A stretch of DNA of 62,984 nt, counting the filler, from Hausera hauseri (lineage: Eukaryota): assembly GCA_046269625.1 (NCBI GenBank). It is 12 parts of 12 records of this genome, joined end to end, with 100 filler letters (N's around TTAATTAATTAA, not from the genome) between each part and the next. Parts side by side here need not be neighbours in the genome. Positions count along the whole stretch, not along the records: positions 19,877 to 24,999 come from JBJURY010328827.1; 11 more parts are not named here. One strand, written 5' to 3'. Shown piece after piece: positions 8,595 through 60,860 of the stretch. Made by a program: the position numbers and the translations under genes. Below the pieces are notes generated by a model that made no database searches, had not been told where the DNA came from, and saw nothing but the letters and a program-made list of their open reading frames with translations. Every line of letters starts with the position of its first letter. Positions within the stretch are counted from its first letter, which is position 1.

Positions 8595-11500
8595 TTATAT
8601 ACAGTAATGGCTATAAGCGGCACTCTGATTTTTCTGAAGCCACTGTCTCTTATCGTCGAACGGGTCCAATGCTTTCTTTTTGCTGTTTATTTTCATGAGC
8701 TGATGATTTTTGTTCCGATACGCTCCTGGTAGACTGTTCTTCGATGACCATATTCATAGGCTTAGAGAAAGTTTTCAAACTGTAAATTTGTTTTCTTCAG
8801 ATTTACGCCTTTGCATTTCAATACGGACTTGGTTTGTGTTTTCAACTAGTAACATTTTGGTTTTAGGCAAATTCCCTCTTTGTACTCGACACTGCCTTTG
8901 CTTTTATCTTTAAATTTATCTATAATAGCCGAGAAACGAGTGGAATAAAGAGGGTCGCTAGTATTATAATTCGACGTGTCCAATTCTTCATTTGAAATCA
9001 TTGTTATTAAGAGTTGTGATCTTAAATCAACTCCACGACCCTCAAGAAAAAAGCTATCCGTGTCACAAGCAGTGATATTTAATTCACAATTAAAATGGTG
9101 TCTATACTTAGCCAGTTTGATGTAATTAAGCTCATACGTCTGTAGCTTGGAAATATCAAGTACGGCCTGACCGATATGTGAGGGCCTATCTAATGTAACT
9201 ATGTCATTATCGAGCAGAACGGCAACCAGATCATCAGCAATAATGATACTTTATTTGAACTGGGCTTTACTGGCATATGTTACAAGCCTCTTTGCATTGA
9301 TACAAAGCCTCAAATTGGACCGTTTTATAAAATTTTCCATTATTTTGATCTTAAAAGTCCTTTTCAAAAGCATTTTTAGCAGCAGCCCTCTTTGCTGTAT
9401 TAAGATTGATGTAGTCCTTAAAGATATAGCATTGATCAAATTTAGCGGCCCGATGTACCTTGTCAATTACAGCGCCTAATTTGATGTACAGTTGCAAACG
9501 CGTATAGTGTATAACATAGTTGGACTTTTGCTCATGTATTAGCAGCAATTTCTTTACTTACAAACCAGGAAGGCAGTTGGTCTAACTTATCATAATTATC
9601 AGCCGGAATGATCAAATCAACTTTGAAGATGAGACCACGTTTTTGTGTAACAGTGTCGACAAAGGGCAATTGTGAAATCAGACTGTTTAATTTATCTTTA
9701 TCATAAATCCCAACCAAATTTCAAAATGGTAAAAGCTGAGATAAAGCCCAGCGGTACAAATTATTCACATCTATATGCAAGATAGTGGTGCTTTCATCGG
9801 TGGTAACCCTATGTTTATTTAGGAACGTCATACCACCACGAATTCCAGATTGGAAAAAAACTATACATTTCAGGATCCTGAATGAGCTCAATACGACATG
9901 GACTCATTTTTAGTTCAGTTGACAAGTTAATCTGGAATAGACACGAAATTAACCGCTTCTAAGTCACCCTCCAACTTAACCTGTTTTCTAAATCGTTCAG
10001 AAATATCACCTAACAAGTATACATCTAGTTTCATGTATACTACCATGTAATCTAAAAGCGAGCTACATCTATATTTTGATCAGGTAAGTTGAGCCTCCTG
10101 ATAATCGCTGTCACTAACTCCATCCCATTTTGGTGGTAATTCAGAAATCGACTGCAAGTCAATAAACGATTTGGCTGCAGTGTATGGAAAAACAGCTTTA
10201 CCTTTAATGATATCAGATGGAAAAGCTGTTTCGGTGAATGGATAACAGTCTAAATTAGAGGCAAGTGTATTTAGTGAAGCAGGTAAAAACTGAAGCGTGT
10301 CAAAAAGCGAATTGAAACTGATTTTTACTTGAACATCGTATCATAGCCTGAATAGTGAAGAATTTTTACGTAGTTTGTGGAACAACACTTAATTCCCAAC
10401 TTCCGAATTTACTTAATGCGTGTTTTAAAATATGATAAATAAAATATCCACGCCAATTATGCAACATAACAGGTAAATTGTACCTAATCTGTTGAGCCAA
10501 GTTACATTTACTACATGCTGGGCCTAAGAATTTACCTGTAACATGGCAGTGATCTCGAACAAATTGAGAACCGTTTTCATGACAGAGGTAACACTATGTG
10601 GCGTTTTTAAACCGAAACCATTCAGCTGATGTTGGTGGGATCATTGGCTTTTTTGCATTTTTGTACCAGGGAAAACCAAGCTTTTCACAATTTACTCTAA
10701 ACAAGCCAGAAACTCAACGATAGAATTTTCACCAACAAACTGTCTATATTCAGTACCCGTTGATGAAACTAACAAAGGACCAGCTGCAGCAGCAAATGAA
10801 TATGTTGAACATTATCATCAGGATACAGAACCGATTCAAAGTCAGCATATATGATGAAAGGAAAGTTTATAGATTTGGCCCAGTCCTTAAATTTAAAAAA
10901 CTTGTTTTCAAGCATTCTGTACAAATTTGTGCATTTGGAAGAAGACACGCACATTGGGAAATGCTTAGCATAAGCAGTGTCAAGCCTAAATCCATGTAAA
11001 CATTTTTCACACCAATGTTTACATTGAATTCTCATATCATTAACCGTATGTTCAACAACCGATTAAGATTAGGAATTGCAACATAATGGAACTTTTCGTC
11101 ATTTTCTAAAATCAACAAGTTCACTACAGTACCATTCGGAATTTTGCTTCTATACAAAATATCAACGAATGGATTTTTCACCATATCCTCATCAAAATCC
11201 ACAACATCCTCATCGTGAAACAAGAAAGCATTAATTGCCAACTGTGGATTCTGCCTTTCAAATTTACCTATGTTGCATATTTTCATAAGCATTTCATCCA
11301 AAGAATATTTCAGCTGGCTTAAATAAGGAACATAATTACTAAGTCTATATATATATGACTTTCAAAGAGAAAATATTTGATCACGGCAATAATCGAGTGT
11401 AGGAAACATAAATTTCCCTCATTCTGTATATCAACAACGGCCATAGCATTTTTTAATGCGTCAAGTGTTGGTAGATAGGATTTTCTAGATAGATAGGGTA

Positions 11501-15541: not shown

Positions 15542-15628
15542 ACCATTAGTGACGTTGGGGTCGGGATGATAGAGACACGATCTACTCACATAGCGATCAA
15601 TGCTTAAAGAGACTTCTTCGAGAAGAAA

Positions 15629-19876: not shown

Positions 19877-20134
19877 AATATATCGGTTATTGTGTCGGAT
19901 TGTCCGCAAACGACTTGAAATAAGGTTTGTTTCTTGTCGGGTAAAGTAAATACCATTGTTCTGACGTATTGTCATTGGTGAAAATGTAAATATGAATTCC
20001 GTCAAAGCCACTTCCTAGGCTTCTTGGCGTAAATTGACCGGTTGGTTCAAGTGCACGGTAAACTGTTTAGCGGTATTGTTATCATCATTTTGCGATGATG
20101 ATCTGTTACTATCAAGTACCAAATAAGTGCTCAT
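19877..20134 (-). pseudogene. Polinton minor capsid (penton) paralogue A, N-terminus
   Basis: YLVLDSN...NNTAKQFTVHLNQPVNL...(W)EVALTEF. Its start overlaps the integrase stop (TGATG). Confidence 0.8.
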
Positions 20135-21167
20135 CACTCAATCTGCGATGCAAAAATCCAACTCGGTGTAGTGTATCCGTGTCACTTGTCGAGATATTAT
20201 TTATTTGAACCTTGACCACGTGAACGTAGAATTTCCTGAATACGATACACATCAAGCTTTTCCGGTAGTACTTGCAGTTCCTGTTCGTAAAATTTGCCAC
20301 GTATTTCGTCACCATTTTTATCTTCTAAAACGTACATAACCGGACTTTGCTTTGTGCTGATTGCTGAAATTCGGAAAACCTCATCGCTCCAGTTCTGATT
20401 AAAATTCTTAATGAATGGTGTCGTATTCAGCTTTGAAATACATACATAATCACCGATTTTATACTTTGGACGACGTTTAATTGCCTGTCGTCCTCGCTGG
20501 GTTCGGTTGTTTTGATAAAGCCAGATGTCCACATCATCAGTTACGTCAACCGGCCATAATCCATTGATGCCACGATGTGTCGAATGATTGTATGCATGAA
20601 TAATATCCGGCAGTACATCTACTCAACGTTTGTTGCCTTGCATCGTAAAGAATTTGTTTAGGCGACCACGCAATGTTCCATTAAATCGTTCATCCAGTGC
20701 AGCCTTGTATTGGAAAAACACCGAGTAGTAATTTACACAGAACCGTTTCAAGACCACTGCAGCGTGGATGTTGTAGAATTCCTTACCCAAATACGTTTGT
20801 AAATGTTTTGGTTGTTGTTATTGTATCAGTGTTGTTGTGCAAAACGACTAAACACATCAACGCATGTCAGCACATACCGATACTTATCGTTGATGCTGGC
20901 GTACGCTATCATTTCCATCAGATGCATTTTCCATACGTTATTTACATCGGCAGCACGGTATGCACGAGTTGGAAACCTCTTTCTTATCGGTTTGTTTAAA
21001 ATGTATGCTAACTGTTTCCCTAGGCAACTTTGGGTCTGTTGCCGAGTCTGTTTGACAGTTTTTGCCAGTTTGTCAAAGCCAGTATACCCGACGGGATGAC
21101 GCGGGTCGAACCATACGTTGCCTATCGGTGTTGTTTTCTTCGTCGATGGTGCCGGTTTTGCTTGAAT
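20134..21167 (-). pseudogene. Polinton rve integrase with C-terminal chromodomain
   Basis: WFDPRHPVGY, VWKMHL.EM, YVLTCVDVFSRFA, LGKEFYN, YNHSTHRGI, NWSDEVFRI, GKFYEQELQ, YRIQEIL. Confidence 0.92.
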
Positions 21168-21382
21168 TGCAACAATTAGAACTAAACGTAAATGAAAGAT
21201 TAGGTAAACTGGGGCAAAGTGATGAAAACCATGCACCCATTGCGACGAATAATTATATACTTACCGTCATTGTTTATACTATGCTGTAGAGCCAATGTGT
21301 TTACTCAGTTATGACGTGACAATCGGTACAATTGCATTAAGTACGTATTGTGGACGTATTGATGCTGATGAGACGTAGTTGT

Positions 21383-21601
21383 TTATAACCGTTGCCACTG
21401 TGACGGTAATTTGCGTCTAGTTGTTGTTGTTGTTCGAAGCACAGAAGTGATTAATCGCTTGGCTGTCGCGGTTCGTTTTGATACACGTTTTTCGCCGGAT
21501 ATCGGCATGGTAGGTTTGAGTTTAACAATAGTTTTTCGGAAATTCTTTATTTTATCACAATCATGTCGTCGATTTTTGAATTTGTTTATAGACACATACA
21601 C
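21383..21601 (-). CDS. Small basic Polinton protein of unknown function
   Basis: K/R-rich 72-aa ORF directly downstream of the ATPase. A homologous sequence is at 53645-53785. Confidence 0.45.
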   Translation of the reverse strand: MYVSINKFKNRRHDCDKIKNFRKTIVKLKPTMPISGEKRVSKRTATAKRLITSVLRTTTTTRRKLPSQWQRL

Positions 21602-22211
21602 CCACTCTTCTGATTGAAAATGTATGTTCGTACACGCATGTCATCGGGTCTCTGTTGTGTAAAGGCAATAAACAGATATCCATGCGGTTTTTTCGTAGCA
21701 TCATGATATGCATCTATTAAGTAGGCTCGGTTGTGAGGACATGCTTGTCGTGCAACATAATCAATGATAGTCTGATCACGGGGATTTTTGAACAACACCA
21801 AACAGTGTACGTTTAGATTTCTTATTCGATGCTGTCCGCCCTGATAGAAAATGTTTTGCGTAATGAAAATGACCGTTACGCCACGGTGTCGTGCAATCTT
21901 CGTGAACAGGTTGTTTAAATCCGATTGTTTCGCGGCTTCATGAAATAAATCATTGATGACAATAGCAACACCGTTGTGTAATCTCTCTGACCAGTTCTCA
22001 TGAAACCCGTTATCGATTTCAGTTTACAAAATTCCCGATGTGTCACAACGGACTCACCATTATCACCAACACCCTGATGCCAATATATGTGATTGTACCA
22101 CGGTGAATGGAACATATCACTGTAGTTCTGTAATAGTTTCAACAGAAAGTATTTTTTGCCACTTCCACTGGGGCATATAATCTGGAAAATGGCATCATTC
22201 TGCAGCTTCAT
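21586..22211 (-). pseudogene. Polinton A32/FtsK-like packaging ATPase
   Basis: Walker A (C)PSGSGK, Walker B IVI(N)DL, RHRGVTVIFITQNIF, VLFKNPRD, DATKKPHGYLFI. Confidence 0.92.
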
Positions 22212-22318
22212 CTAAATAACAATAATAATAAAACCTTTCCTTACCACATGATTTGTTTATAATCGTGTTACACACACACATATATATATATAGCTATAGT
22301 ATAAACACTGCTTCCATA

Positions 22319-22790
22319 ATGTTACCTAATATCAATTATCGCGGACATATTACCGAGTGTGACATTAACACACTACCTTTTAATCAATGGAAGCCGAGGC
22401 AGTATGTCGTCAAGTATCCACCGGATTTTACATGTATTGTATTTCAATCGGAAAAGTGTCGTATTATGGGTTGTCGCAAACCAATCACAGAAGACAGTAA
22501 CAGTAATCTACTACCATTCGGAATTGTCATTGACCAAATCTAATCAATAACGGTAACGACTCAGTTAGACTACCACCAAACAATCAATTTGTACAAATTA
22601 GCAATGACCGCTGCTACTGAATGTACGTATGAACCCGAACTGTTTTCTGCACTTAGACTGACAATGTTTCGCCCACCTTGTGTCAATGTGTGTAGCAGTG
22701 GAAAAATTTTTATACTCGGTATTCGGACAGTGGACTATTAGCCGATTATTAATCAAATTAAAAACCACATATATCTTTTAGTAAATCAAA
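22319..22790 (+). pseudogene. TATA-binding protein (TBP)-like gene inside the Polinton
   Basis: Repeat 1 TCIVFQSEKCRIMGCR. Reading through TAA 22541 gives repeat 2 I*SITVT...INLYKLA...YEPELFSAL...CVNVCSSGKIFILGIR, which compares with TBP YEPELFPGL...LLIFVSGKVVLTGAK. Confidence 0.85.
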
Positions 22791-22852
22791 ATAATGTACT
22801 TTGCACTACAAACTGTAAATACCATTCCCATGCTCATTCAGACATTACTGCC

Positions 22853-23506
22853 ATGGAAGACGACGATGATAAAACGATTCTGCCCAATGATGATGATAGT
22901 GGTTGTGCGAATGATGAAAGTTCAGATTGGTCGTTGTTGTTTGGCGACAAAAAGGACAATTTTAATGTCAAACAATTAGAAAAACCGGGCGATCGTCGGC
23001 AGATCGATTTTCTGGAAACGAAACAGGAACTTGCTCAGAAATCATCAGCAGCGGCGAACCCGACGTTAAAAAGGCGAAATGCAATGATTGGAATATGCAA
23101 ACGAAAATCAAAACCGTCGGCACACCAAACACAGATATTTTTACCGAAACGAATTTTTCGCAAGTATGAAATGCATTTTCTGCAAACGCCCATACTAATT
23201 TTATTAAACGATCCCGTGTCTCTATGCGCACCCAAGTACAGCTATCGTGTAAAACGGCTTTCGGTTGAAAATTTGTATAAACTTTCTAATGCTCTACATC
23301 AATCAAACGTGGATTTAAAGTTGAACGAAAGGACTGTGCAACAGCAATCTGTCGATTTACCGGCGCAAAAAACAAAACTGTTTGATTTTATCGGTCGCGA
23401 AATGTCTTATGTACCCGATGATAATGGTAGTTTAAAGTGTCGACTGAATATTGAGTTGCAAGGATACAAGGAAAAGCCGGTATCAAAAGCCCGATTTGGC
23501 GTGTAA
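22853..23506 (+). CDS. Hypothetical 217-aa Polinton protein with acidic N-terminus
   Basis: Open ORF between the TBP-like gene and dUTPase, in the same frame as the TBP-like gene. No recognisable motif. Confidence 0.55.
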   Translation: MEDDDDKTILPNDDDSGCANDESSDWSLLFGDKKDNFNVKQLEKPGDRRQIDFLETKQELAQKSSAAANPTLKRRNAMIGICKRKSKPSAHQTQIFLPKRIFRKYEMHFLQTPILILLNDPVSLCAPKYSYRVKRLSVENLYKLSNALHQSNVDLKLNERTVQQQSVDLPAQKTKLFDFIGREMSYVPDDNGSLKCRLNIELQGYKEKPVSKARFGV

Positions 23507-23614
23507 CTGAACACATTNNNNNNNNNNTACTATTCTTCTTCTTCTTCTTCTTTCACCAACCCAATTAACGAGCATAAATATACGTGTTTTTTTAAAAAAA
23601 TAGGCATAAGAATA

Positions 23615-24085
23615 ATGATAATGAATGATGTAAAGATTATCTTAACAGACGAAAACGCCTTTGTACCGAGACGTGTTACAGCAAACAGTGCAGGCTACGA
23701 TGTGTTTTCCAATGTCAATACGACAATTTCCGTCAGCATAATCAAATGCATAACGACTAAAATGCGATTGGCGATTCCATCGGGTAACTACGGCCAACTT
23801 TTATCGAAAAGCGTACTGGCAAAGCTCGGATTGACAGTTGTAGACGGTGTTATTGATTCAGACTTTTGTGGTGAAATTAAGGTGTTGCTGAAAAACTAAT
23901 CCAGCGAACCGTATGCTTTTTCGAAAGCCAGTGCAAATGCACAAAACGTTTTTCTTCTCTGTGAAGAAATGGAATTCAGTGTAATGTCACCGGAACAATG
24001 GGGATTGTTTTGCATCAATGAATCGATGCGAAATGAACGCAAAGAATTTGACTTCTGTGATATGGAAAAAACCGTCTATGTTTAA
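23615..24085 (+). pseudogene. dut: Trimeric dUTPase
   Basis: SAGYDV, GQLLSKS.LA, GVIDSDFCGEIKVLL. After a premature TAA at 23897 come decayed motifs 4 and 5 (NAQ; R...EF). Confidence 0.92.
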
Positions 24086-24159
24086 TTATTACGATAATAA
24101 TAATAGTTAGTTGTTTTGCTTGTGTCATAAACAAAAAAAGATTTTGTACATGATAAGTA

Positions 24160-24619
24160 ATGGCGACAGGATTTATAGATATTGAAACGTCCCAAGATGA
24201 TAATGTCGGGTACATAATAAATGAATTATGAATTATGGATGTCGGTAACATTTTCAAACCGCTTCTGTACATACTGAAGCCCGGTATTGCGTGGAAAGAC
24301 CTGACGGAAAAAGCGAAAATTGCAAACGGATTTTGTTTNNNNNNNNNNCAATTGAATATTTTGTGCGCCGTGCATTATACAAGAGATTTGTGATCGTTTT
24401 GACATTGAAAATATAATATTTTACATTAGAGATCAAATTGACGGTCAAAGGCTTACACAACTCCATTCACAGTTTCCCGAGTTGCGAATGGCGACGTATT
24501 CAACATAAAATAGCTCACTGGCGATGGTACCTGACAATATTCAATGTCCATATCGTGATCATGGACCACACTGTGCTTACAAAAAATGCCTACGGCTTTG
24601 TATTGACTATATTTCATAA
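24160..24619 (+). pseudogene. DnaQ/DEDD-like exonuclease-fold protein with C-terminal Cys/His cluster
   Basis: MATGFIDIE...YIINELWI, VKG, CPYRDHGPHCAYKKC. Interrupted by a 10-N gap. Confidence 0.55.
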
Positions 24620-24729
24620 ATAAATGCATTTCTCTGTTTCTTTTTTCTTTCCGTAAATAAGGTTTGCCATGTTGGTCAATTGAATAATTCGAAAACTATA
24701 AATATTGGTAGGAAATATTATTAATCATC

Positions 24730-24999
24730 ATGAAAATAGTTAATCAACTGAAGCAGTTGCAAAATTTTGATGAATTATCAATTTCAGACTTGGAACGATG
24801 GTGGCAAGTAATTGATAGTGGGCTGATTGCGAGAGCAGCAGCTGATTTTGGGTTTAAAGAATATCTAGTGTCAATAGCATTGATGACAGCAAAAGATTGC
24901 AGCTCTATAGAAAATCTAATTATTGTATTAAATCAAATGTACATTCACCGATTGTACAACACAAATTACTTTAACACTGTTGAAAAGGTACGCGGTGAA
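24730..24999 (+). CDS. Hypothetical protein, truncated by the contig end
   Basis: ATG-started 90-codon open frame preceded by TATAAA (24697). Confidence 0.45.
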
Positions 25000-33140: not shown

Positions 33141-36100
33141 ATGGCAAAATATTACAAAATCAATCCGGACACGTATGTGTGTCCAACGTGTGATGTTCCA
33201 ACCCGCTGTCCGTACTCAGACTTTTATGAGATGCACAAGCATCATCTCGGTCCGTTCACGCGGTCCAAGAAGATGATGCATGTGAATTGTCCCACATACC
33301 CACACTACTGTAGTAATAAAGTGCACAACGTTAGTGGTTATCATAGTACAGTGCAGCAGTACTATGGCATAACCTCAACGCTGCACAATAAAAGGGCCTA
33401 CGTTTGTCCCTGTTGTTCAATAGTTGAAACTCAAATAAACTATGAACAATTTTATAATCTGCATAAAAACCACTTAAACCAGTTTAAGCGGCCGAAGAAA
33501 CAAATATTTATGGACAACAGCAGCAGCAACAACATCCTGTCAACAACAACAACCAGTAAGAAACATCAGGCCTCAACAAGTCTTGACGGCTTAATCAGAA
33601 ACAGTATCCAGCAGCAGCATTAGCAACAGCAACAGGAACATTATCAACACGAACAGGAGGCCAGTATTCCCAACATTACAGTCAAGTACTATCTGAACAG
33701 ATCGTACGTGGACATAAAAGTGAACATGTCGTCGACAACAACAATGCAATTGAGACATATTCCGCAAAATGTGCGTAACCGGTTGGAATCAGAACTGAGA
33801 AAATTCCAACACCATTGCAAAGTGCAATATTATGCACTTGCAGAATTTAAAATTTGGAATGTGATGGGAAACAATGGTACATGTCACATCGAGCCGAACC
33901 GTATTCCAACAATTTTATTGCCGACGTAGGTGAGAAGCTCGAGAAAATCGCCAACTACACTAAAAAGGTCAGTGGATAGCGAATTATAAAAATTGTCACT
34001 CTTGGCTTTATCGTAACAAAGTCGAGTGACATAATTTACCTGTCCGGCCGATCATTCATACCGTCACCTACAGCCCTGCAGCATTCACATTCAGTAGTGA
34101 ATGTAAAAAATACTGACAAAGAATACTGTTTTCTTTACAGTATTCTGGTGGGAATAAAATAAGACCAAGTGGGCAGACATAGTGCAAATTGTACAAATCA
34201 GTATCGGCACTACTTTTCCGAATTGGATTTCGATGAATGCTGGATGCCGATGAGACCTAAAGCCATTCTGGCTTTTAAGCGCCGTAATCCAACACTGGAA
34301 ATAAATGTCTTGCGGTACAGTACAATAATAGAAACATCTGCAAACGACGAGACATAAGAACCCCTTGTGGACATAATTTTTCGAAGTCGGAATGCAAGAA
34401 GACACCCAATATATTTGTTGCAGCTCGAGCAAAAGGGAAACTTACATTATATGACAGTGACCAATTTGTATCGATTGTTGAACATGGATCACTGTCAGTT
34501 TGTCCAAAAGTACATACAGTGTAAATTGTGTCCTGTATATCTGCATGGTTTCAGGTCAAAAACAACATGGGAGAAACATGTGACGCTGTGCAAGCAGAAT
34601 TCAACGGAAACAACCATGTACGTCATGCCACTGAAAAAGGAGCTCCGATTCAATCATTGGTCGAAAACGAACAGTCCGGCATATGTGGTATATGCCGATA
34701 TTGAGGCAACTGTACCACGGCACAACGTGTATGATGAAAAACACGTTCCAATCGCCGTTGGTATGTTGGTTGTCCCAATAAAAGCTGTCGGTAAGCCGCA
34801 GTATTACGCCTTTCACGACTGGAACTGTGTACGTAATTTCCTGCAGCGTTTAGAAACGATAGTGGAAACGAAATCGAGCCGTGGTATCGCAATAACTGCA
34901 CAAAACCCCTGATTTGGACAGACGAAGACGAACGCCTGACATTTGCAGTCACAGATGAATGTTATCTGTGCCACCATAAAATATTACCGTTTGATGCACA
35001 GGAACGACTCGTACCGGATCACGACCATTTCACCGGTGGATACCTGGGAGCATCATGCAAAGCATTCAATTTAGCGAGGCGTGTGCGGCCATTCCTACCG
35101 GTAATCTTTCATAATTTCCGAGGTCATGACTGTCACCATATTCTTAAATGGGCCATTAACGGCTTTCCGCACTGGGAAATGTCCATAATTCCAACAACAG
35201 TGGAGAAGTACCTGTCCCTGTAAAAACGCATAAACCGATTCCAGGTACGCTTCTTTGATTCATTGCAATTTCTCAATAAATCATTGGCGAAGCTGGTAAA
35301 TGCCTTCCCGGATGTGCCGATAACCTCAACACAGTTCTCCACACATATTCCACGCAGCAAACGCATAATTCCTTATGACTTTGCAAAATCAAACGAGCGA
35401 CTCTGGACAGCAGAGAAATTACCGTCGCGATGGACAGGCATCACAGAGGATGAATACCGAAAAGCGCAGAGGTGTTAGACAGAACTCGGCTGTAGAAAAA
35501 TGTTGGATTACATGCTCCAGCATCTTAAACTAGACGTGTACCTGTTAGCCGATGTGTTCCAGCCGTTTTGAACGAAAGCGTTGGCTGAAAATAGGCTAAA
35601 GCCACTTAACTTTTATTCCATACCGAGAATGAGTTAGGCGTAAGCTCTAATGTAAAGGGATCAAGACATTGAGCTACTGAAAGACCCGAAAATATACCAA
35701 CTGTTTCATGTTGGTATTCGCGGTGGCATGACTTTTGTCAACAAGCGTAAGGTCAGTGCTACCGTCCATATCACATCACTGCTGTATATTGATATTAATA
35801 ACCTGTATGGCTGGGCGCTTTCGCAACCCTTGCCGTACGGTTCACTCTAATGGGTAATCGAGAGACAAAATCTGGAAGAAATAATGGTCAACCTACCACG
35901 TGCAGACATGGCAGGCTCAGTCGGATACCTGATNNNNNNNNNNGTATGGCTGGGCGCTTTCGCAACCCTTGCCGTACGGTTCACTTGAATGGATAGTCGA
36001 CACAAAATATCTGGACGACACAATGGTAACCTATCACGAGCAGAAATGGTGAGCTCAGTCAGATACCTGATGGAGGTTGATCTCTTGGTACCGGATGAGT

Positions 36101-36905
36101 TGCATGACGTTTTGGATGATTTACCGGTGGCACCATATAATCAATGCCTGCCAGGCTCAAAAGTGAAGAAACTGCCCATGACTTATGAACCGAAGCTGAA
36201 TTACGTGGTCCAGTGGCGTCTGTTACAGTTCTACATGCAGCTCGGTGAACGCGTCCCACAGCTGCATCGCGCAATCAAAATCAATCAGACGCCGATATTC
36301 AAGGCGTACATTGATGGAAATTCAGAAAAAATGAGTCGCAGCTTGTACAAAGTTCGAAAAGGTCTATTACAAGCTGAAAAACAATTCATTGTACGGGAAA
36401 ACAGTGGAGAATTTGATAAAGCATCTCAATATGCGCCTGAGCAACGACGAAAAACGGCTGGTTACGTACATAAGCAAGGCTCAGTTCAGGCGGTCAATGC
36501 ACATTGCGGATGGATTGGTTGCAGTGCTGTTAAACTGGAAAGAAATCGTAATGGACCGGACAAGTGGTATTGGACCTGAGTAAGTTGAGAATGTACGAGC
36601 TCCATTATCGCGATTTGGTAAGTTACCGGCAAATATTCTACGGCTGTGAGATCAGTATTGTTGCCGATGACGGACAACTTTTTCCTTGAGCTGTAAAACA
36701 TCAGTCAAGTCCAGCTGCTCCGACAAATGATGGCAGATTGATTACTGGACACGTCCAACTACCCACAGAACCATCCGCTGTACATCAGCGCGATAACAAA
36801 CAAAATCGGCTGCTTCAAGGACGAAAATTAAGGCAGGGTTCAATACAGGAAATGGATAATTTTGCGCCCAAAAGTGCTACAGTTTTCTGACGGATTGTGG
36901 GCCGA
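33141..36905 (+). pseudogene. Polinton/adintovirus protein-primed PolB (copy 2) with two N-terminal Zn fingers
   Basis: VKNTDKEYCFLYSI, VVYADIE, DHDHFTGGYLGA, IFHNFRGHD, FFDSLQFL, LKLDVYLLAD, GIRGGMTF, YIDINNLYGWALSQPLP, YGKTVEN, LDTSNYP, IGCFKDE. Confidence 0.93.
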
Positions 36906-37445
36906 AAATTCGGTCAAAAAGCATCCAGCTGAAACAGACGGAAACAAATCACGGCGATTACCGCCGCTGTAGACGGTAACGAATAAAAAAGTTGTTTTAT
37001 TATGCCGTGATGATAAGCGTAAGTGGGTGGGGCGGAATAACAGTTGGCGTACGGACATTGACGTTTGGAATAAAACACGCTCACACACAGATGAAATCGA
37101 TGCAGATAGATCAATTGACTATGACATTTTGTTGTTATATGTGTTTTATCAATAATGTATATTGTTCACTGTATTGCCTTTTGTTTTATTATTTTATTAT
37201 CATTTAATGTACCTTTATATTTAACTTAATGTGACGAAAAACGATATGAAAAAAACAAACAAACAAAACCAGTAAAATTTATTAATCATCATAAGCTGAA
37301 ATCAATAACAAAGTCAAATCAGCGTAAACTTCCCAGCTTTCATATNNNNNNNNNNNNNNNNNNNNNNNNNNNNNNNNNNNNNNNNNNNNTTAATTAATTA
37401 ANNNNNNNNNNNNNNNNNNNNNNNNNNNNNNNNNNNNNNNNNNNN

Positions 37446-37706
37446 GTGGCGCATTTTCAGCTTTTCTTTTTGTCCCCTGGTTCCTCTCCCTTAATTTCCG
37501 AGCTCCTCACATCTATAAACTTTTGCTCCTTTTGTCACGCGCTACCGACTTGACTCGGTCCAAAATGCAATGCTCCACCTCCTTTTCGGCCAGGAGGGGT
37601 CTGATTAAAATTTTTCCGAAAATGATAGTTATAGCGAGATAGATGGAGAAACGCGCTTATAACTTTTGTTTTAATAAGTGAGGAAGAAAGCATACTTCTA
37701 GCTACT
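37446..37706 (-). repeat. Probable Polinton terminus (TIR start AGTAGCTAGAAGT)
   Basis: The reverse complement aligns with the units at 43258 and 43835 (AGTAG...GAAGT...CTTTCT, CCTGGCC.AAAAGG, TAGCGCGTGAC, AGCAAAAGTTT). Confidence 0.6.
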
Positions 37707-38216
37707 CTCCTGTATTGATTATAGCGGTGATAGGATATCCAATTATCCAAATTACGGTTCTCGGTGTTACTTTACCACTTCTGTACTATTATATGAGTTA
37801 TCAGAGCTTCTTTTGGAGTCGTTGGGTAAACCCTTAGTTTCATATGTTTTGGATCGTAATTTTCCATAACATTAGGATGATGTATATATGCGTATTCATT
37901 AGAAGTAATGAATTGTTGTTGTTCCATTGGATGTTTATTCCACCATTTTACTTGCAGAATATCTGCCAGCAACCTTCTCCGTTTCTTACTACTAGTAATG
38001 ATTGAACTCCATGTCTTTTTAGTATTCAAGAGTGAAATTTATCTTCTTCGTCGGCGGTACATCTTCATCATCGTCAGAGTCATAATTATTTTTATTCTTT
38101 TGTTTGCATTCAGCACCTTTTTACTAAAAACCAACTAGCTAAGGATTGGATCAGAACATAGATGATTTCCCATGTACATACAGCAGTTTATTTTATACCG
38201 TATCTTTTAGTTACCA

Positions 38217-43257: not shown

Positions 43258-44390
43258 AGTAGTGGGAAGTGCGGGTTAACCGCATTTCTCTGATTGGTCA
43301 GCCGATTGCTTTTCCCTACCTGATTGATTATTTCGAGCATTTCACTAAAATTTTCCCTCGACCCCCCTGGCCAAAAGGGAAGTCGAGCAATGGACATTTG
43401 ACCTAGTGATATCGATAGCGCGTGACGAGCTAAGCAAAAGTTTGTGGCGGTGCGGCTTTGAAAAATGTAAGGGCGAGGCGCTAGAAGAGAAAGACGCAAA
43501 ACAGGAAATGCTCCACGCGTAACGAGAAACGTGCTTCTAGCTCTGACAAAATGTGTACAAAGGGTAAATCGATGTTGGCAAATCCAATGGACACGGTTGC
43601 AACTCAATCAAACCATGGGAACATGGGGAAAAATCGATGGAAAATTTTCAAACGGGGAAAATTTCCCTACACAAATCAAACGGTGGTGGAAATGGGTTGA
43701 GCTCATAGCCATCATTAGTTGAGCATTTCATATAGCCGCCTAACGATCAGATGAAAGGATCCAGGTGAAAATGGTAACAAAACGAACAAACGAACCGAAA
43801 AAACGCATTGTTAAAATGTAAGTCAAAATCATAAAGTAGGTAGAAGTGAGCTTTCTACCCCATTTCCCAAAAGTGCTCAGATCGACCTCGGATCAATTTT
43901 CCCTACCTATCTCGTAATTCTGAGCATTTCATGTTTTTTGTCGGAGACCTCCTCCAGACGGAAGCATATGTCACATGTTGCGCAAGTCACCGACGGAAAT
44001 CGGTAGAGCTCGATGAGCGGAGAAAAATTTTGTAGCGCAGTGAGAGTCAAAATGTAACCGGGCGGCGCTAGAAGCAAAAGAAGCAAAACAGGAAATTTTC
44101 TACGAGAAACGAGACACGAGTTACGAATTTCGCAATGTTTTGTCCCAATGTAAAATGAATGTTGATGAATTGAATGCACACAATTTCAACTCGGTCTGAC
44201 CCTGGGAACATGGGGAAAATTGATGAGAAAATTTCAAACGATAAAAAAATTTTCCATTGTTCAAATCTGCTGGCTGTGGAAATGAGTTGAGCACGTAGCC
44301 CATCAGTAGTTGAGCATTTCATATTATAGCCGACTCACGATCAGACTAATGGATCGGGGTGTGAAAAATGTGAAACGAAAACGAAAATGA
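43258..44390 (+). repeat. Two tandem, diverged Polinton terminal-repeat units (starts 43258 AGTAGT and 43835 AGTAGG)
   Basis: Shared blocks GGCGCTAGAAG..CAAAACAGGAAAT, GGGAACATGGGGAAAA and AGTTGAGCATTTCATAT. They lie directly downstream of adenain. Polinton ends typically begin AGT. Confidence 0.65.
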
Positions 44391-44546: not shown

Positions 44547-44920
44547 TCACAAAATGGAATGTAATGTAAGCCACAATAAGCAATAATGTCCACAGAGTAT
44601 AGTCATTGGATGTTGGTAATGAACTCGATTATATTCAACACGGTATGATGATGATGATTGCCGTTCAATTTGAGAAACTAACGATGACGGATAGTAAAAT
44701 CCAAGCGGATCGAATACTCTGACGACGTTGGTCGGATGGTGGACGTACACAGCAATCCGATGTTCGCACGGCAACGATGAAGCTTGTGTATTGACAATAA
44801 AGCCACCGCCGCCGGTTTGTCGTAAATCACGCTGCACACAATCCAGTGGAAACACTCCACAAAATTTCACGCCCAAGAGCAGTTTTCCGTAGTGACTGAG
44901 CTAGGTGGAGATAATTGTGA
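44547..44920 (-). pseudogene. Adenain-like cysteine protease
   Basis: FCGVFPLD, FIVNT....PCEH(R)IAVY, FDPLG, YQ...TILCGHYCL. Confidence 0.9.
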
Positions 44921-45000
44921 ATTAAGTATAATAGTAATAGTAGTAATAAATGGCTTTATAATACGGCGAAGAAGAAAAGGTGAGACACAGCGGATTTTAT

Positions 45001-46246: not shown

Positions 46247-46606
46247 TCAACCGAAAATCGTACGACGACGAAGTTTGTTTACAGTTGATGAGTTCAGTGG
46301 TGCTCTACGACGTTTTCTCAAGCCACTGCCAGCGAACTGATTCTTGACTGATTCAACGACTCCCGATGCAGCGCTTTTCATTTCTGACAAGGCGTGTTCC
46401 TTCAACGATGGTAAAATCGACTTGTTTTCATACAGTACGTCCTGTGATGTTTTTGCTGCCATGGTACAGGTACGCTTCAACATCGGAAATGTTAAACGTG
46501 CCAATGTATGCAACAATCCAGACCCATACTGTTTACGGACGAAATACGGCAGTTCACCACCCTGCTGCGGTTTACTGTAAATGGAAACGATTTCGGAATC
46601 AATCAT
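46247..46606 (-). CDS. Polinton small core/cement-like protein with QxGG and QxGxG motifs
   Basis: QQGGELPYF, QYGSGL, GSG followed by a basic tail. Lies between penton and MCP; homologue at 57395-57759. Confidence 0.75.
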   Translation of the reverse strand: MIDSEIVSIYSKPQQGGELPYFVRKQYGSGLLHTLARLTFPMLKRTCTMAAKTSQDVLYENKSILPSLKEHALSEMKSAASGVVESVKNQFAGSGLRKRRRAPLNSSTVNKLRRRTIFG

Positions 46607-46610
46607 GTTG

Positions 46611-53544: not shown

Positions 53545-53820
53545 NNNNNNNNNNNNNNNNNNNNNNNNNNNNNNNNNNNNNNNNNNNNTTAATTAATTAA
53601 NNNNNNNNNNNNNNNNNNNNNNNNNNNNNNNNNNNNNNNNNNNNTCAACCTACCAAGCGGGTGTCCGGCGGTGTCAAGAAATGTGTATCAAAACGAACCA
53701 ACGCTACAGTCAAGAGATTAATTAATTTTTCGAACAACAACATCAACACCTAGACGCAAATTACTGCCACAATGCAACGGTTATGAACCATTACGTCTTA
53801 TCAACATCAATACGTCAAAA

Positions 53821-54144
53821 ATGCGACTCAAACGTAGTCAACCGTACTTTGTTGTTTTGCTGGTGGCACCTACGAGACATAAGCGAAACATGCTGCGATC
53901 ATTCGCACAGTTTGTACTATACGATTTGATTGAAATTTTATACAATATCGCTGTGGGTCACGTTGACATTGGTAGTGAAAAGCGGAATTTACTAAAGTAT
54001 CGAAAATGACTCATTGGCCTTGCCAACGCCCGTAGTAAACCACTGAAACGAGAGGTTGTGTACCAGCAAGACGGCGGATTCCTTGGTGCAATTCTACCGA
54101 TTGTCACGTCATTACTGGGTAGACTCATTGATTCTGCAACATAA
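53821..54144 (+). pseudogene. Polinton/adintovirus protein with C-terminal amphipathic (membrane-lytic-like) peptide
   Basis: LIEILYNI..G ... QQDGGFLGAILPIVTSLLGRL. One premature TGA at 54007. Confidence 0.75.
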
Positions 54145-54258
54145 TATTATAAACAATGTCGGTAAGTATGTAATGATTCGGCAATATGGGTGCATTGTTT
54201 TCATTTTTCTTTCCAAATTTACCGATTCTTTCACTTGCGTTTTGTTCTAATTGTTGTA

Positions 54259-55313
54259 ATGCAAGCAAAACCGACACCATCGACGGCAATGACGGGCGAT
54301 GTGTGGTTTAACCCGCGTCATCCCGTCGGCGATACTGGAGTCGACAAACTGGCAAAGACTGTCAAACACACTCGGCAAGAGACCCAACGTTAGCTCGGGA
54401 AACAGTTAGCATACAGCCTAAATAAACCGATAAGAAGGAGGTTTTCAACTCGTGCATACCATGCTGCCGGTGTAAATAATGTATGGCAAATGGATCTGAC
54501 GGAAATGATTCGGTACGCCAGCATCAATAATGGGTATCGGTAAGTGCTCACATGTGTTGATGTGTTTAGTGCAATTGCTGTGAAATCTTAATCCTGTAAA
54601 GTGATTGCCGACAATGTTCAGACACTGATACTACAACAACAACCGAAGTATTTACAAGCGGATTTAGGTAAGGAATTCTACAACACTTACGTTGCAGCGG
54701 TCTCGAAACGGTTCGGCGTAAACCACTACTCGGTTTTATCCCAATACAAGGCTGCACTCGTTGAACGATTTAGTCGAACATTGCGCTGTCGCCTAAACCA
54801 ATTCTTTACGAAGCAAGGCAACAAACGCTGCATAGATGTACTGCGGGATATTATTCCTGCATACAGTCATTCGACACATCGTGGTATCAATGGATTACGG
54901 CCGGTTGATGCAGTCGATGATTTGCACATGCAGCTTTATCAAAACAACCGACGAGGTCGACAAGCAATTAAACATCGCCCAAAATATAAAATCGGTGCTT
55001 ATGTACGTATTTCTAAAATAAGTACAATGCCATTCATTAAGAATTTCAATCAGAACTGTAGCGACGAGTTTTTCTGCATTTCGGCAATCAACACAAAACA
55101 AACACCTGCCATGTACGTTTTAGAGGTGAAAATGGTGAGGAAATACGCGGTAAATTCTACGAACAGGAACTTTAGGTACTACTCGAGAAACCCGATGTGC
55201 ATCGTATTCAGGAAATTCTACGTTCAAGTAGGAAAGGTTCGAATAAACAATATCTCGTCAAGTGGCACGAATACACTACACCGAGTTGGATATTTGCATC
55301 GCAGATTGAGTGA
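54259..55313 (+). pseudogene. Polinton rve integrase with chromodomain (second copy)
   Basis: VWQMDL, VDVFS, LQADLGKEFYN, LVERFSRTL, YLVKW...SWI. Closely similar at the DNA level to 20134-21167. Confidence 0.92.
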
Positions 55314-56300
55314 TGAGTATTTTTGGTACTCCATAGTAACAGATTATTATCAGAACATAACGGTGATGACAATAACGATAATATCGCTAAACAATTTACC
55401 GTGCACTTGAACCAAACGGTTGATTTAGGCCACGGAGCCTGAAAAGTGGCTTTGATGGAATTCATGTTTACATTTTCAATAATGACAATACGTCAGAACA
55501 GTGGTATTTACTTTATCCGACAAAAAACGTACCCGATTTCAAGTCGTTTGCGGACAATCCGACAGAATAACCGATATGTTCTTTGCAATTATTGGGGAGA
55601 AAATTTTTCGGTTTATGCTTATTTTTCAAACTACCGTATGAAACTAATGCATTGAAATCCCATGGAAATTCAATTTAAATATATAGCTGATGCTCAGGCA
55701 TAAAGTTTTCAATCAGTCAATGTACACGCAAAACGTCTACGGCTTGGTGGATATGTTATAATTGGTGAAAAATTGGACCTTTTATACAATGTGGAATCTG
55801 ATAATATAGTAAAGTGGAATAAGTCAGAAGCAGTCTCCCGCTATTATATTATACAACATGATTTACTAATGGAAACGGAACTGGAATTGTGTGCATACAT
55901 AAAGAAATTGGCCTCATTAGCCGTAAAGACATGTGAAATAAACGCAGATGATCGTATTTCGATTACACTACATGATAATGTTACATATTTTGCTGTTGAT
56001 GAATTATTGGCTCGGAATCTGGATTTTTCAAAAATCTAATTCTATCAAACCATTGTTGGACGATCTATTGTTGCCAAATACAAACCGCAATTCTATGGAG
56101 AATTTTATAGAATCAACTTTTTAACGGACTTAACCAAATTCGTACTCGTTGGTGGAGAACGTAAACAACTGCCGGCTTCTATAGAACTGGATTCTGACAC
56201 ATACAAAACATCATCATCGGGTGAAACTGTTTGCGCTATTATGTTCAGATCTGTGTATTTATCATTGTCTCACAATATTGTGCACAGTATTTCCGTGTAT
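55313..56300 (+). pseudogene. Penton paralogue A
   Basis: NIAKQFTVHLNQTVDL...*KVALMEF ... LTDLTKFVLVGGERKQL. Confidence 0.8.
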
Positions 56301-56364
56301 ATGTTTCATAATAAACAAACTGCGTCATCACCATCATTATCATCATCATAATCATAAGCATCGA

Positions 56365-57402
56365 GATCATGAGTATTTCATGGTGTTGCCGAGCAACAGT
56401 TGTTCGACGACTCATTCAAACAATTCCGTTAAGAAATACGTTGTATACTGGAACAATCCTTTGGATATATCTGCTGGACAATGGGAGGTTGCTCTGACGA
56501 AATTTAACTTTCCCTACGCATCTGTGACATTAAAAGGTAGTATGAAAATAACGTACAACAAGACTGTTTTTGAAACCAAAACACATTCTTGTCCTCTGAC
56601 ACTTACAAACAATAAAATAACGGTTCGAGAATCGGCCATTTTCACGACCAAATCAGGTTCCGATTCACATGGCAAAATCGGTGTTTATATTTTAGAGCAA
56701 AACTTAGTTTTTATGGCACAGAAATTTGAAATCAAAAATATAGAGTACAAAGGTAAAGATATTAAAACTGTATATGCTGTTGCTCCAAGATTAAGTCCCG
56801 CAAATTACCAAAGAACAGGAAAATTTACCTATATAGTACAAAGGGTGACAAAATCATACGTATCGATTATAGAAAATGTCTATTGGGAATCTGCAGCACA
56901 GCTTTGTCAACACTTTTTTTCTAGTCAAAAGTACAAGGCGATATTTAAAGTTTTCGAGTCAGATGCAAATGGTTACATTAAATTTGAATTGGCCAAGGAT
57001 ATTGTCAACATTTCATTGAACAAAGCTTTGGCCATGGTATTAGGTTTTGAAAAACATCGGTTTGAGGCGTCGGATACGAACATGGCACATGTCGCAACAC
57101 TAAAGCCCAAACTGTAAACTGGACTAAGTCAAATGTACATTTACGTAAACGTCACCGAACCGATTTTAGTTGGTGGAGTACGGTTACCGCTACTCCGTTT
57201 AATTTATCCGGAAAGCAGCAAGTATACTACTGGCGACAATGTAAATGGCAAGGTCGATAATCCAATGTATCTACCCGTGGCATCTATATCTATAAACAGT
57301 GTTAAAGTGAATATTCAATATGACGCGGGCTACCTTATTAAATGTCCGTACGGTACAACAATTAGTCTAACGCTTCATTTCCGTCGAATCCAATATGATT
57401 GA
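56365..57402 (+). pseudogene. Penton paralogue B
   Basis: YFMVLPSNS...NNS...WEVALTKF ... MYIYVNVTEPILVGGVRLPLLR...NPMYLPV...LTLHFRR. One premature TAA at 57115. Confidence 0.88.
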
Positions 57403-57759
57403 TTCTGAAATCGTTTCCATTTACAGTAAACCCCAGCACAGCGGCGAACTACCGTACTTCGTTGGTGAACAGCATAGTTTTGGATTGCTGCGTACATTGG
57501 CATGCCTAGAATTTCCAGCGTTGAAGTGTTTCGGTGCCCTGTCAGCAAAAACAGCACAAGACGCACTATATGGAAACAAATCGATTTTATCATAACTGAA
57601 GGAACACGCCTTGTCTAAAGTAAAAAGCGCTGAACCGAGAGTCGTTCAATGAGTCAAAAAACAATTTGCTGGCAGTGACTTCATGACGAGAAAACGGCTT
57701 AGAGCATCATCGAGTTCATCAGCTATAAACAAACGTCGTCGTCATACGATTTTCGATTG
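57395..57759 (+). pseudogene. Polinton small core/cement-like protein (second copy)
   Basis: Homologous to 46247-46606, with internal stops. Confidence 0.75.
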
Positions 57760-57763: not shown

Positions 57764-57949
57764 ATGGAATCTGCAAAATCTAAATTGTGTATATTTGACA
57801 AAGCGACACAACAAGTTGTTATTGACAATGCGGCATTTAAAGACATCTACCCCGTTAATTCGGTTTCAACAAACGATAACATTAATATTCAATTCAGCAT
57901 TATGCCATCGGACAATAAATACCTGGATTTGAACGATACGCTACTCTAT
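57764..57949 (+). CDS. Major capsid protein N-terminus, truncated by the contig end
   Basis: MESAKSKLCIFD...IYPV...YLDLNDTLLY. Confidence 0.85.
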
Positions 57950-58148: not shown

Positions 58149-60860
58149 TTACAACATATTCACAACTGATACGTGTCCATGAGGTAGTGTGAATATCCCA
58201 TTGTTTAGGGTGCGTTTCCACTCATCCATCCAATTTAGGCTGTTTTCTGCAGCCTTACTGTTTCGATGTTATAAGGTGTAGATTGGATCCTTCTTATTTT
58301 GAAAATTATATGGGTCTGCTCCTGTAGAACTCTTATATAATCATTAAATACGTTTTTCTTTTCCAAGGTGGTTCTTTGCACACCTTTAGCTCTATTCTTT
58401 ATTTGGTCACATACATTGATTGCGTAAATTTTTGATCTTAGATCCACGAATCTTGAGATAATTGCCTCATTCACCTTATCTTTGAATTTCCCAAGGACCT
58501 TTTCGTTCTTCATAGAAAAATTCTTGTGATCTTTTGGATAGTCAGATGCATCCATATGCTCTGCCAATTAAGCAAATATCCTCTGTATGGACTTGATATA
58601 CAAAGCTATCAGTATACATGTGCATGAGCTGCAGAGTCTTGAATGTTGGGATCATGATGTCATAGTGGAAATGATATGTCAAGGTCTTTCACAGGTCTAG
58701 TATTGATATACCCACATGTATTGGATTGAAGAATTCTATAGATATCTTGAGCATATGGATGCTGACCAAGGTCTCTGTGTATATGATGCAGCTGTAAAAG
58801 TTCGACTTAGAAATCAGCTTCTTGGCTGGTTTCCACCCACATACTCACTCGACGTTGATCCTATTTCGGATGTTCTCCATCGTCTTGCCAAAAGCACTAT
58901 TGTTATACCGTTTAAACTGGTCCTTCTCAATATCGTTTTTGACATTGGTCCGCAGCATCGTATTGAGATTATATATAAGGTTTCAGCCACATGGACTGGC
59001 TGAACTGCAAAGTTTGATGGATCTTCGTAATGCGGAGTCTATATTTGATAGCCTTCTGGAGATTGATATAGTGGGCTGCATAACTCTACCTGTTCTCCAG
59101 ATGGCAGAGCAGCTTTCGATGTTTACATTAAGTGGTTCCTTACCCTCAGGGAGGAATAGCACATATTTATGCCTTGTGTGGATGGAGCGCAGATATTCAA
59201 CATATACTTTCAGTATGCATCCCGTATACCCATTGGGATCTGCATCTTGTATTGCCATATGTCCCGGATGATCAACCCATTTAAAGCCGTCATAAAGCAG
59301 TAGGGCGCTCATTGCCCATCCATATACGTTGTTTGCATCCAGGTAATCAATATGAGGTAGGTAATACCAAGTAGGTAATATCAGTATGCCTTGAATGGAT
59401 CATATTCGGCCATATAGTTGTTATTGGCCTTGCTCTACCAGTGAATTGCCTGAAATATTCCACCTCTAATACCTCGCTTGATCATGAAGATCATATAAAA
59501 ATCCTTCAAGATATGCAGTCTAATACCGATATATCTCAGCATTACTGCTCAACTCATTCCTGAAGCTGTAAAGAAATGAGCTGGGTCCAACTTGCGACTT
59601 GCTAATGTTTCATCCCGGAAGCTTTTAAATATATCGGTTAGCAGTAGCACATCTGTCTTGTTGTATGCATCACTATATTCACCTACTATTTGAAATCTGA
59701 ATGCTTCCCAGACCTTTTTGGCACGCTGATATTCTGCGTTACTGATATCGCTGTCTGACAGCACACTGTAAAATTTTTTTTGGCCGGCAAAGCTGTGTCA
59801 TCAAATGCTTCGATGATGTGATATAATCATAGTGAAACAATCCTTTCCTTTGGACCAAGTCAAATTTAGTAAGAAACAAACGCTTTGTCTCCTTAAGATC
59901 TTCTGCCGGAAGATTCTTCACTAAGCTGTCAAGTGAAGAAGACATGAATCGAAAACTATCTCCGCAGCGGAGCCGGATTTTTCCAACATTATTTGTAAAC
60001 GTTATATATTTTTCTTCACTTTTGGGGATCATGTCAATATTTCCTTCAATGTTACTCAGTTCCCGAAAAATAAAGTAAAAATCATATCTACTTAGGTTGT
60101 GGAATATTACAAGAACAAAAGTTACTGTTCTGCAACATATATTGCAATTTTTGAGTCTCTGAAGCTCATCCCTTATTACACCTTTGACTTTTGATTTGCT
60201 GTTCCTTAAGAAATCCGTGATGCTTCGGTCATTCTCATTGGCAGATATATAAAAAATGTTGACTTTTCGGCTCATAGCATGATCATTAGCCATTCTTAAG
60301 AGCGAATTTTGTGGGTAGTAGATGGCACCGCCTGGGTGTTTTGTCTTTTGTCAGGAGATTTTTGAGGAAATGGAATTTGTTGCGTCCATAGTACTTCTGT
60401 CAGAATTTCTCACTTCTTCATTATTTCAAATGGTGTCAGATGATCTTTGCGGGGATTATAAATGTCAGGGAATTGAGATTTTTCTGCAGTTTTACAATTA
60501 GGGAAGAAAAAATAAATTGTACCATTTGAATCTGGTTAAATAATATTTCCCATTTCTTCGGGGGGGGGGGGGAGTTGAAACAAATTATGATTTCCAGATT
60601 TGGTTTGTTTCTTGAGGTTGGAATGATTGAGACATTTCTTTCCTTGAGCATGATGCATTAAAGTGACTTAAATGTTGCTTATGCTGTTTGTAAAATTCCA
60701 AATACGAAACAGCACCGGCAGATTAGCAGTCCGGGCATAAGTAATAAATAAGACCATTCTTTCACGTTTTACAGTTCCTTTCAATGATCTGGTTACATAT
60801 ATCTGAACGATACCATTTAGAAATGTAATAATTGACATAATTTGCACTATGAACAATTTA
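58149..60860 (-). pseudogene. Polinton protein-primed PolB (copy 3, divergent subfamily, internally deleted)
   Basis: IFHNLSRYD, DSFRFMSSSLDSLV, RKGLF.YDY, YNKTDVLLL.DIF..FR, LDPAHF, YLDANN.YGWAMS, TDSFVY, DASDYP, KVLGKFKD, AKGV. Confidence 0.92.

Follow-up and report, generated by a model that had tools for sequence, protein, structure and literature searches.

Animal Mavericks, or Polintons, and adintoviruses are the closest described systems to the elements considered here, which lie in a 62,984-nucleotide stretch of Hausera hauseri DNA (assembly GCA_046269625.1; hereafter the window), filler included, composed of 12 separate contigs joined by spacers. In the available excerpts of the published accounts, to which all comparisons with the literature below are limited, vertebrate Mavericks carry the gene blocks atp-pm-pz and int-mcp-pw-Mcp-pro, end in an (AGT)2 motif, possess accessory regions and are degraded in most copies, and no virions of animal Mavericks have been observed (Barreat & Katzourakis 2021, PMC8097293). 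Three contigs of the window, S5 (19877-24999), S11 (53645-57949) and S9 (42652-48341), present both blocks in equal internal order, accessory genes and similar degradation, together with the Polinton/Maverick hallmarks of an rve integrase, an A32/FtsK ATPase, an adenain-like protease and the (AGT)2 end motif. We consider it fairly probable that S5, S11 and S9 are copies, each decayed on its own, of a single multi-copy Maverick/Polinton family with a shortened TATA-binding protein (TBP) that likely serves as a late-gene switch.

Unlike in vertebrate Mavericks (PMC8097293), both blocks here lie in line on one strand, the minor capsid protein is represented by two paralogs and PolB does not sit beside the ATPase, while the accessory arm carries TBP, single-stranded-DNA-binding (SSB)-like, dUTPase and DxE-motif genes; the genes are equated with PM, PZ and PW by position alone. 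Adintoviruses with a Beta-type virion module are alike in integrase, penton, Cupiennin-position gene, hexon, adenain and FtsK ATPase (Starrett 2021, PMC8502044), maps of animal adintoviruses bear the labels dUTPase, MAEL and SSDBP (Supp. Fig S2 of the same work), and duplicate pentons have already been reported in adintoviruses (Buck 2024, PMC11071296). An earlier note on this DNA had proposed an accessory-rich Polinton virus; the word virus applies by gene content only, as every copy in the window is broken, and the copies do carry TBP, dUTPase and replication helpers, but most of the additions (dUTPase, MAEL, SSDBP, duplicate pentons) were already known. TBP is a different matter: in the excerpts of Starrett 2021 (PMC8502044) it is named, without analysis, only in the legend of a figure on non-animal MELD viruses, and neither TBP nor TATA is mentioned in the main texts (figures and Repbase entries lying outside this scope) of PMC11131425, PMC11071308, PMC11071296, 10.1101/2023.08.22.554363, 10.1101/2025.04.19.649669 and 10.64898/2026.10.13.758929. 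The Polinton literature searched holds no account of how genes are timed.

The shortened TBP and its box

The TBP-like gene of S5 has 17 close homologs, mostly of 145-160 aa and 42-76% identical, and 63 clusters at E values up to 1e-10 among 50%-identity representatives. Both TBP repeats find a profile match, with two Pfam stretches in locus L023 and a PDB profile E of 7e-29, and in a tree of 41 rows, which were picked by hand and whose bootstrap is not fully settled, a 100/100 branch parts 35 short-type rows from 6 full-length TBP-like rows. Among the 63 phmmer hits, taken without a motif filter, 57/60 and 58/60 aligned rows retain the two stirrup glutamates, and Phe is kept at three of the positions that kink DNA (58/58, 60/60 and 58/58); both Asn/Gln-type saddle positions are also kept, and residues vary at the first-Phe position of the N-lobe, with Y/F in 18 of 57 aligned rows. 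The N-lobe linker has a median of 20 residues (26 or fewer in 59 of 62) versus 33 in the archaeal TBP 2z8u, and by alignment the full N-lobe helix H2 with its basic patch appears to be absent, with ~13 H2 residues missing. Stirrup and H2 positions were assigned by a mapping to yeast numbering that we presume to be correct.

In comparison with cellular and archaeal TBPs (Pfam PF00352), the two-repeat saddle signature, the C-lobe EPELF stirrup and three conserved Phe are thus shared, whereas the small size, the shorter N-lobe and the variable first Phe are not. The viral members of TBP/TFIIB pairs in nucleocytoplasmic large DNA viruses likewise lack the N-lobe regulator patch (Ravarani 2020, PMC7221094), where the Mot1/TAF1/TFIIA/Brf contacts are placed on N-lobe H2 and the TFIIB contact at the same two C-lobe positions; at the TFIIB-contact positions, however, those TBPs are variable, and the viruses supply a TFIIB of their own, whereas the Polinton TBPs keep both glutamates. 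Neither a TFIIB nor an RNA polymerase gene was seen in the partial TBP loci, and no Pfam match to TFIIB was found in 87 of their 106 unassigned open reading frames (ORFs), the other 19 having been scanned already or judged duplicates or off-frame. A likeness in proposed working may be drawn with ORF24/UL87 of beta- and gamma-herpesviruses (PMC7498053, PMC12529657), a TBP mimic that directs host RNA polymerase II (Pol II) to late variant-TATA promoters; ORF24 acts within a six-protein complex and contacts Pol II directly, while the Polinton TBP is small, stands alone and is no member of that family.

The relatives come from a TBP-alignment search that yielded 65 TBP loci (64 metagenome loci and one from a viral collection; L numbers below). 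A Polinton core gene accompanies TBP in 40 of the 65, and a core, SSB-like or MAEL-like gene in 54; 10 of the other 11 are shorter than 3.2 kb. One TBP-alignment locus holds a full-length TBP without Polinton genes. When TATAAAC was scored at -105 to -14 of gene starts in these relatives, with integrase and the DxE gene set outside the contrast, it preceded 40/60 virion and packaging starts (ATPase 14/21, 'lytic' 7/8, penton 4/10, 'core' 5/6, major capsid protein (MCP) 7/9, protease 3/6) versus 0/69 TBP, SSB and PolB starts (0/47, 0/18 and 0/4, respectively), where shuffling predicts fewer than 1.2 per class. TBP starts were instead preceded by TATAAAW in 17/47 cases versus 4.8 expected. Over the whole window TATAAAS was not enriched (25 versus 27.8 expected), and the signal is therefore positional. 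Exact TATAAAC boxes occupy eight structural-arm sites in the window copies, at the ATPase, the basic ORF, the 'lytic' site, the integrase (two), the 'core' gene (two) and the MCP.

Together, TBP and TATAAAC suggest a late-transcription switch, every step of which we infer from sequence. In a first phase, TBP would be transcribed by host Pol II, in many cases from a TATAAAW box of the host type, as would the SSB-like, dUTPase and PolB genes. The viral TBP would next occupy TATAAAC boxes and, by means of its intact C-lobe stirrup, bring in host TFIIB and Pol II; having no helix H2, it would evade Mot1/BTAF1 and TAF1, for which that helix is the docking site. Capsid, ATPase and protease genes would then be expressed in a burst once replication has started. 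For the wider proposition, that a widespread Polinton clade combining Alpha-type, PLA2-bearing modules and Beta-type virion modules uses a one-protein late-transcription system made up of a minimal H2-less TBP, its own TATAAAC box and host Pol II, we see an even balance of chances.

Several observations weigh against the late-switch proposal. Contrary to the 0/47 in relatives, the window TBP itself has a TATAAAC (22300-22306) 19 nt before its start, within a 107-nt head-to-head spacer; this box is too close to be the TBP promoter and may be autoregulatory or due to chance. The box also precedes the DxE gene in 5/10 loci and integrase in 3/16, so the early/late split is not clean, and the loci are related and partly near-duplicates, so that counts are not independent and significance is overstated. 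Host TBP may read TATAAAC by itself. The loss of H2 is read from an alignment, and in the L047-L059 group, whose elements carry PLA2, KilA-N and C2H2 genes (the Alpha-type module) with PolB upstream, the linker is longer (27-31 residues) yet the box occurs in some members, and the loss of H2 is therefore no requirement. The search patterns behind the 64 metagenome loci contained the EPELF motif, and as most loci are incomplete, a TFIIB gene could lie outside them; linkage across the scaffold join at 23518 (see below) is indirect, drawn from matching contig sizes and not from contig sequence.

If TATAAAC were simply a strong promoter for host TBP, the viral TBP might be put to another use, for example as a decoy for host TFIIB or promoters that damps host transcription or silencing. 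TATAAAC is only one position off TATAWAW, the TFIIB stirrup is the best-kept surface of the TBP, and the variability at the first Phe could weaken DNA binding, all of which such a decoy would accommodate; we nonetheless regard it as unlikely, given that the box is absent from all 69 TBP, SSB and PolB starts, that TBP starts are enriched for the host-type box, and that three of the four Phe positions and both saddle positions are kept.

Copies, gene order and scaffold joins

The overlaps that the earlier note had read between the three contigs were recovered by blastn: S5 19877-21336 aligned with S11 55580-54087 at 81% identity over 1512 columns, S5 21344-21516 with S11 53825-53647 at 77%, and S9 46034-48340 with S11 57949-55735 at 75% over 2352 columns. 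Intact relatives used as queries placed every gene where that note had placed it. Its claim of independent insertions agrees with the pattern of decay, in that integrase and penton-B stops fall at non-equivalent places in the two copies compared and the 'lytic' gene is deleted from S5, where ~260 nt (53826-54086 of S11) have no counterpart and the upstream TATAAAC box is kept. Mismatches are nearly even over codon positions (186/1042, 155/1046 and, at the third, 215/1043; p = 0.002, frames from S11), which points mostly to post-insertion decay with a small share from already diverged founders. In two public runs, one of which may be the source sample, 39,779 (run X1) and 1,881 contigs matched S5, with all 30 bins covered at similar depth in both, and 42,684 (run X1) and 1,721 matched S9, again covering all 30 bins; such contig depth does not measure copy number. 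Between window copies and run contigs there are differences at no fewer than 549 (S5) and 822 (S9) places.

The composite gene order holds on single metagenome contigs: ATPase, 'lytic' gene, integrase, penton or pentons, 'core' gene, MCP and protease lie in line in L012, L023 and L033, with two pentons in L023, as in both S11 and S9. In S5, penton A, integrase and ATPase are linked to TBP by gap-free sequence. Among relatives TBP changes place: it may precede the ATPase or come behind the DxE gene or PolB. The ATPase and TBP are head-to-head in only 3 of the 28 relatives with both and on the same strand in 24. Of the proposed bidirectional genome, the accessory arm with TBP, dUTPase and replication helpers stands, but the layout is not supported as a trait of the family, and the integrase belongs to the structural arm. 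Nor is a reconstructed genome supported, as the left arm ends at 24999, no PolB is linked, one terminus is present and the copies are 19-25% apart.

This distance, with the small third-codon excess, could mean that the pieces stem from different subfamilies and that no single element has exactly this composite, the two-penton capsid arm, for example, being separate from the TBP-SSB-dUTPase arm. The 75-81% identity of the copies, the slightly more frequent third-position differences, the shifting of accessory genes among relatives, and the fall in S9 contig depth over penton A (47782-48341) and to 1,670 between protease and terminal unit fit such a mixture. Most divergence, however, is blind to codon position, as expected of post-insertion decay, S5 itself makes the gap-free link to TBP, and relatives confirm the structural order on single contigs, leaving different subfamilies an improbable explanation.

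The 10-N join at 24339 is sound, since one gene runs across it: positions 3-59 of the DxE-gene profile match before the gap and 74-160 after it. For the join at 23518, TBP, the 217-aa ORF and the dUTPase each have closest intact homologs whose clusters include members from contigs of 2683 and 10226 bases (the dUTPase on the 2683-base contig being an N-terminal 50-aa piece), and TBP and dUTPase homologs also have contig sizes of 10114 and 4354 bases in common; four matching sizes are unlikely by chance, which supports this join. Neither join thus appears to be the misjoin that had been feared. An accessory arm that arose by faulty scaffolding, or that is host DNA beside a truncated Polinton, as the two 10-N joins, one of them beside a microsatellite, and the absence of the dUTPase and the 24730..24999 ORF from all 65 TBP loci might hint, is largely refuted and highly improbable, in view of the gene continuing across 24339, the contig sizes shared by the homologs, the similar depth over all of S5 in both runs, and the position of TBP and SSB ahead of the first gap.

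Gene map, terminus, polymerase and other contents

Coordinates of all features are collected in the table. The putative double jelly-roll MCP and single jelly-roll minor capsid genes are conserved genes of 403-427 aa and 340-400 aa, respectively, at the expected positions, with no sequence match in Pfam, PHROG or PDB. Window integrase copies are 48-57% identical to the L023 protein, itself a Pfam rve match (E 1e-12) with a weak chromo match, and the L023 ATPase is Pfam Pox_A32. Short basic ORFs between the ATPase and 'lytic' genes occur in 6/7 relatives inspected by eye.

Features of the element copies and polymerase contigs, in window coordinates
Position	Strand	Feature	Evidence or remark
19919..20131	-	Penton (minor capsid) paralog A, N-terminal part, cut by contig end	Relatives' penton profile iE 2e-9; penton identity by position only
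20155..21241	-	rve integrase, broken: frame change near 20830, stops 20625, 20199, 20184	tblastn to L023 integrase, 52-54%
21272..21278	-	TATAAAC ~37 nt before integrase start	
21381..21387	-	TATAAAC before site of deleted 'lytic' gene	
21383..21570	-	Small Lys/Arg-rich ORF (PM/Adintoc2 position), broken	Compared by eye
21584-21590	-	TATAAAC of basic ORF	
21589..22211	-	A32/FtsK-type packaging ATPase, frame change near 22010	52-63% to L023 ATPase
22255-22261	-	TATAAAC of ATPase	
22319..22774	+	Short TBP-like gene, stops 22541 and 22739	Pfam TBP E 7e-9; PDB TBP matches; 17 homologs at 42-76%; profile iE 4.5e-51
22853..23506	+	217-aa ORF: acidic N-terminal part and ~115-aa OB-fold domain, predicted T7 gp2.5/Enc34-like ssDNA-binding protein	
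23518..23527	.	10-N scaffold join beside TTC microsatellite	Indirect support
23615..24085	+	Trimeric dUTPase, stop 23897	Pfam E 2e-13; intact homologs 71%, 63%
24163..24616	+	DxE-motif gene (DnaQ/MAEL-like by motif only), broken, across 10-N join 24339-24348	Family profile
24730..24999	+	ORF of no assigned family, open at contig end	Contig coverage like rest of S5
53731..54129	+	'Lytic-peptide' gene (PZ/GasderminX position), stop 54007	37-41% to relatives; name by position only
54148	+	TATAAAC of integrase, second copy	
54187..55292	+	Integrase, second copy, stops 54391, 54541, 54589, 55173	
55350..56306	+	Penton paralog A, broken	iE 4e-20
56368..57390	+	Penton paralog B, stop 57115	iE 2e-69
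57291	+	TATAAAC of 'core' gene, S11	
57395..57700	+	'Core' gene (PW/Cupiennin position), stop 57593	43% to L023
57724	+	TATAAAC of MCP, S11	
57764..57949	+	MCP N-terminus	58% to L023
46623..48302	-	Penton A (47814-48302) and penton B (46623-47666), third copy, broken	
46716-46722	-	TATAAAC of 'core' gene, S9	
46247..46606	-	'Core' gene, open	53% to L023
45004..46219	-	MCP, several stops and frame change	43-58% to L023; assigned by sequence and position
44550..44900	-	Adenain-like cysteine protease	Alignment; PDB adenain profile E 3.5e-6
43258..44385	.	Terminal region: two tandem units of ~580 nt, the outer starting AGTAGT at 43258	
37446..37707	.	Terminal unit, third, partial copy, other contig	
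33791..37044	+	Broken protein-primed PolB, weakly preferred partner candidate	40-42% to L012/L023 PolB; closest dinucleotide signature of three
8598..11340	-	Broken PolB, second candidate	44-45% to L012/L023 PolB
58274..60146	-	Broken PolB, least likely candidate	32% to L012/L023 PolB; CpG observed/expected 0.59

The C-terminal domain of the 217-aa ORF stands beside TBP in 20/65 loci. A model of this OB-fold domain from a relative (116 aa, 22 sequences) reached a pLDDT of 92, and its top Foldseek rows in PDB were the T7 gp2.5 and Enc34 ssDNA-binding proteins (probability 0.98-0.99, TM 0.53-0.65, E only 0.07-0.4), with E 4e-5 against giant-virus models. The predicted fold, alike in T7 gp2.5, Enc34 and relatives in nucleocytoplasmic large DNA viruses, makes the ORF likely a T7-gp2.5-like ssDNA-binding protein; in contrast to T7 gp2.5 and Enc34, its acidic stretch is N-terminal. 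The model of the 217-aa ORF itself, from 3 sequences, reached a pLDDT of 34, and Atlas gave no usable match for it and only sub-threshold leads for the relative. The DxE family, found in 13/65 TBP loci, has the DxE motif and conserved Cys/His with no Pfam or PDB match. The 24730..24999 ORF had no match in Pfam, PHROG or the 65 TBP loci, and scans of viral_contigs with TBP, the 217-aa ORF and the dUTPase found no close relative. Among the relatives, a leucine-rich-repeat gene follows TBP in L029, L030, L039, L044 and L045, a ~190-aa unassigned ORF likewise follows it in L029, L030, L044 and L045, and a ubiquitin-conjugating enzyme (L023:225-719), a dual-specificity phosphatase (L006:4008-4316) and a RING finger (L036:1710-2168) lie near TBP.

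At the terminus of S9 the tandem units are 72% identical to each other, and summed contig depth rises from ~100 to ~37,000 (>300-fold) across 43222-43601; AGTAGT at 43258 sits at this step and matches the published end motif (PMC8097293). The unit is likely the terminal inverted repeat that the earlier note had called, judging by motif and depth, although one end only is present, the unit is tandemly doubled and no inverted partner was seen in the segment. Alternatively, the unit may be a short element in its own right. In one X1 contig, MCP position 46007 is fused to 43279, which looks like the insertion of such an end into a capsid gene.

In S9 the terminal region comes after the protease, which would place PolB on the other arm; in relatives L012, L023, L030 and L047 it is linked to the TBP locus. 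As the earlier note had held, no partner can be picked from the three unlinked PolB contigs of the window, two of which are about equally close to the PolB of L012 and L023 while the third stands at 32%, and whose tree gives no resolution (bootstrap 50). A ranking of 33059-37345 as closest to the relatives' PolB was rejected, as it drew on best-segment identities only and had support neither from the tree nor from whole-length identity (40-42% versus 44-45% for 8598-11340). Dinucleotide distance, at 54-67 for 33059-37345 versus 103-152 and 187-225 for the others (74-97 for an unrelated contig), leaves a weak lean to 33059-37345 as the putative partner. L012 and L023 PolB both contain an endonuclease VII-like insert. 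Tandem repeats occur at 61153-62070 and 5226-5631, the former a 70% duplication (blastn) near the end of the third PolB contig.

Observed/expected CpG is 1.1-1.3 in the element copies versus 0.25 in 4204-8296 and 0.59 in 58200-60900, a contrast that may reflect contigs with different methylation history or from more than one organism. Two broken Gypsy-type long-terminal-repeat retroelement fragments lie at 795-3327 and 13954-16123 (reverse transcriptase, RNase H and integrase motifs by eye), and 18377-19352, 25581-26303 and 30755-31159 hold what we take, by motif, to be piggyBac-like and Tigger-like transposase fragments and a protein-kinase exon. The transposon content and the kind of virion module suggest that the host is an animal. 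The contig 48442-53544, with open ORFs of 174 and 325 aa and an aspartic-protease-like frame, matches no other segment or locus and is possibly another mobile element.

Meaning for the family

The composite gene map is by itself ordinary, and the interest lies in the TBP and its box. If the wider proposition is true, we know of no viral late switch that is smaller, and the system would be evidence of a timed, virus-like cycle; on the late-switch reading, an intact natural TBP homolog would prefer TATAAACA over TATAAAAG. A natural TBP without helix H2 would test which surfaces are needed for Pol II initiation, and the conserved TBP, with a matching box on virion genes, offers a testable handle on the early-to-late programme of these elements.

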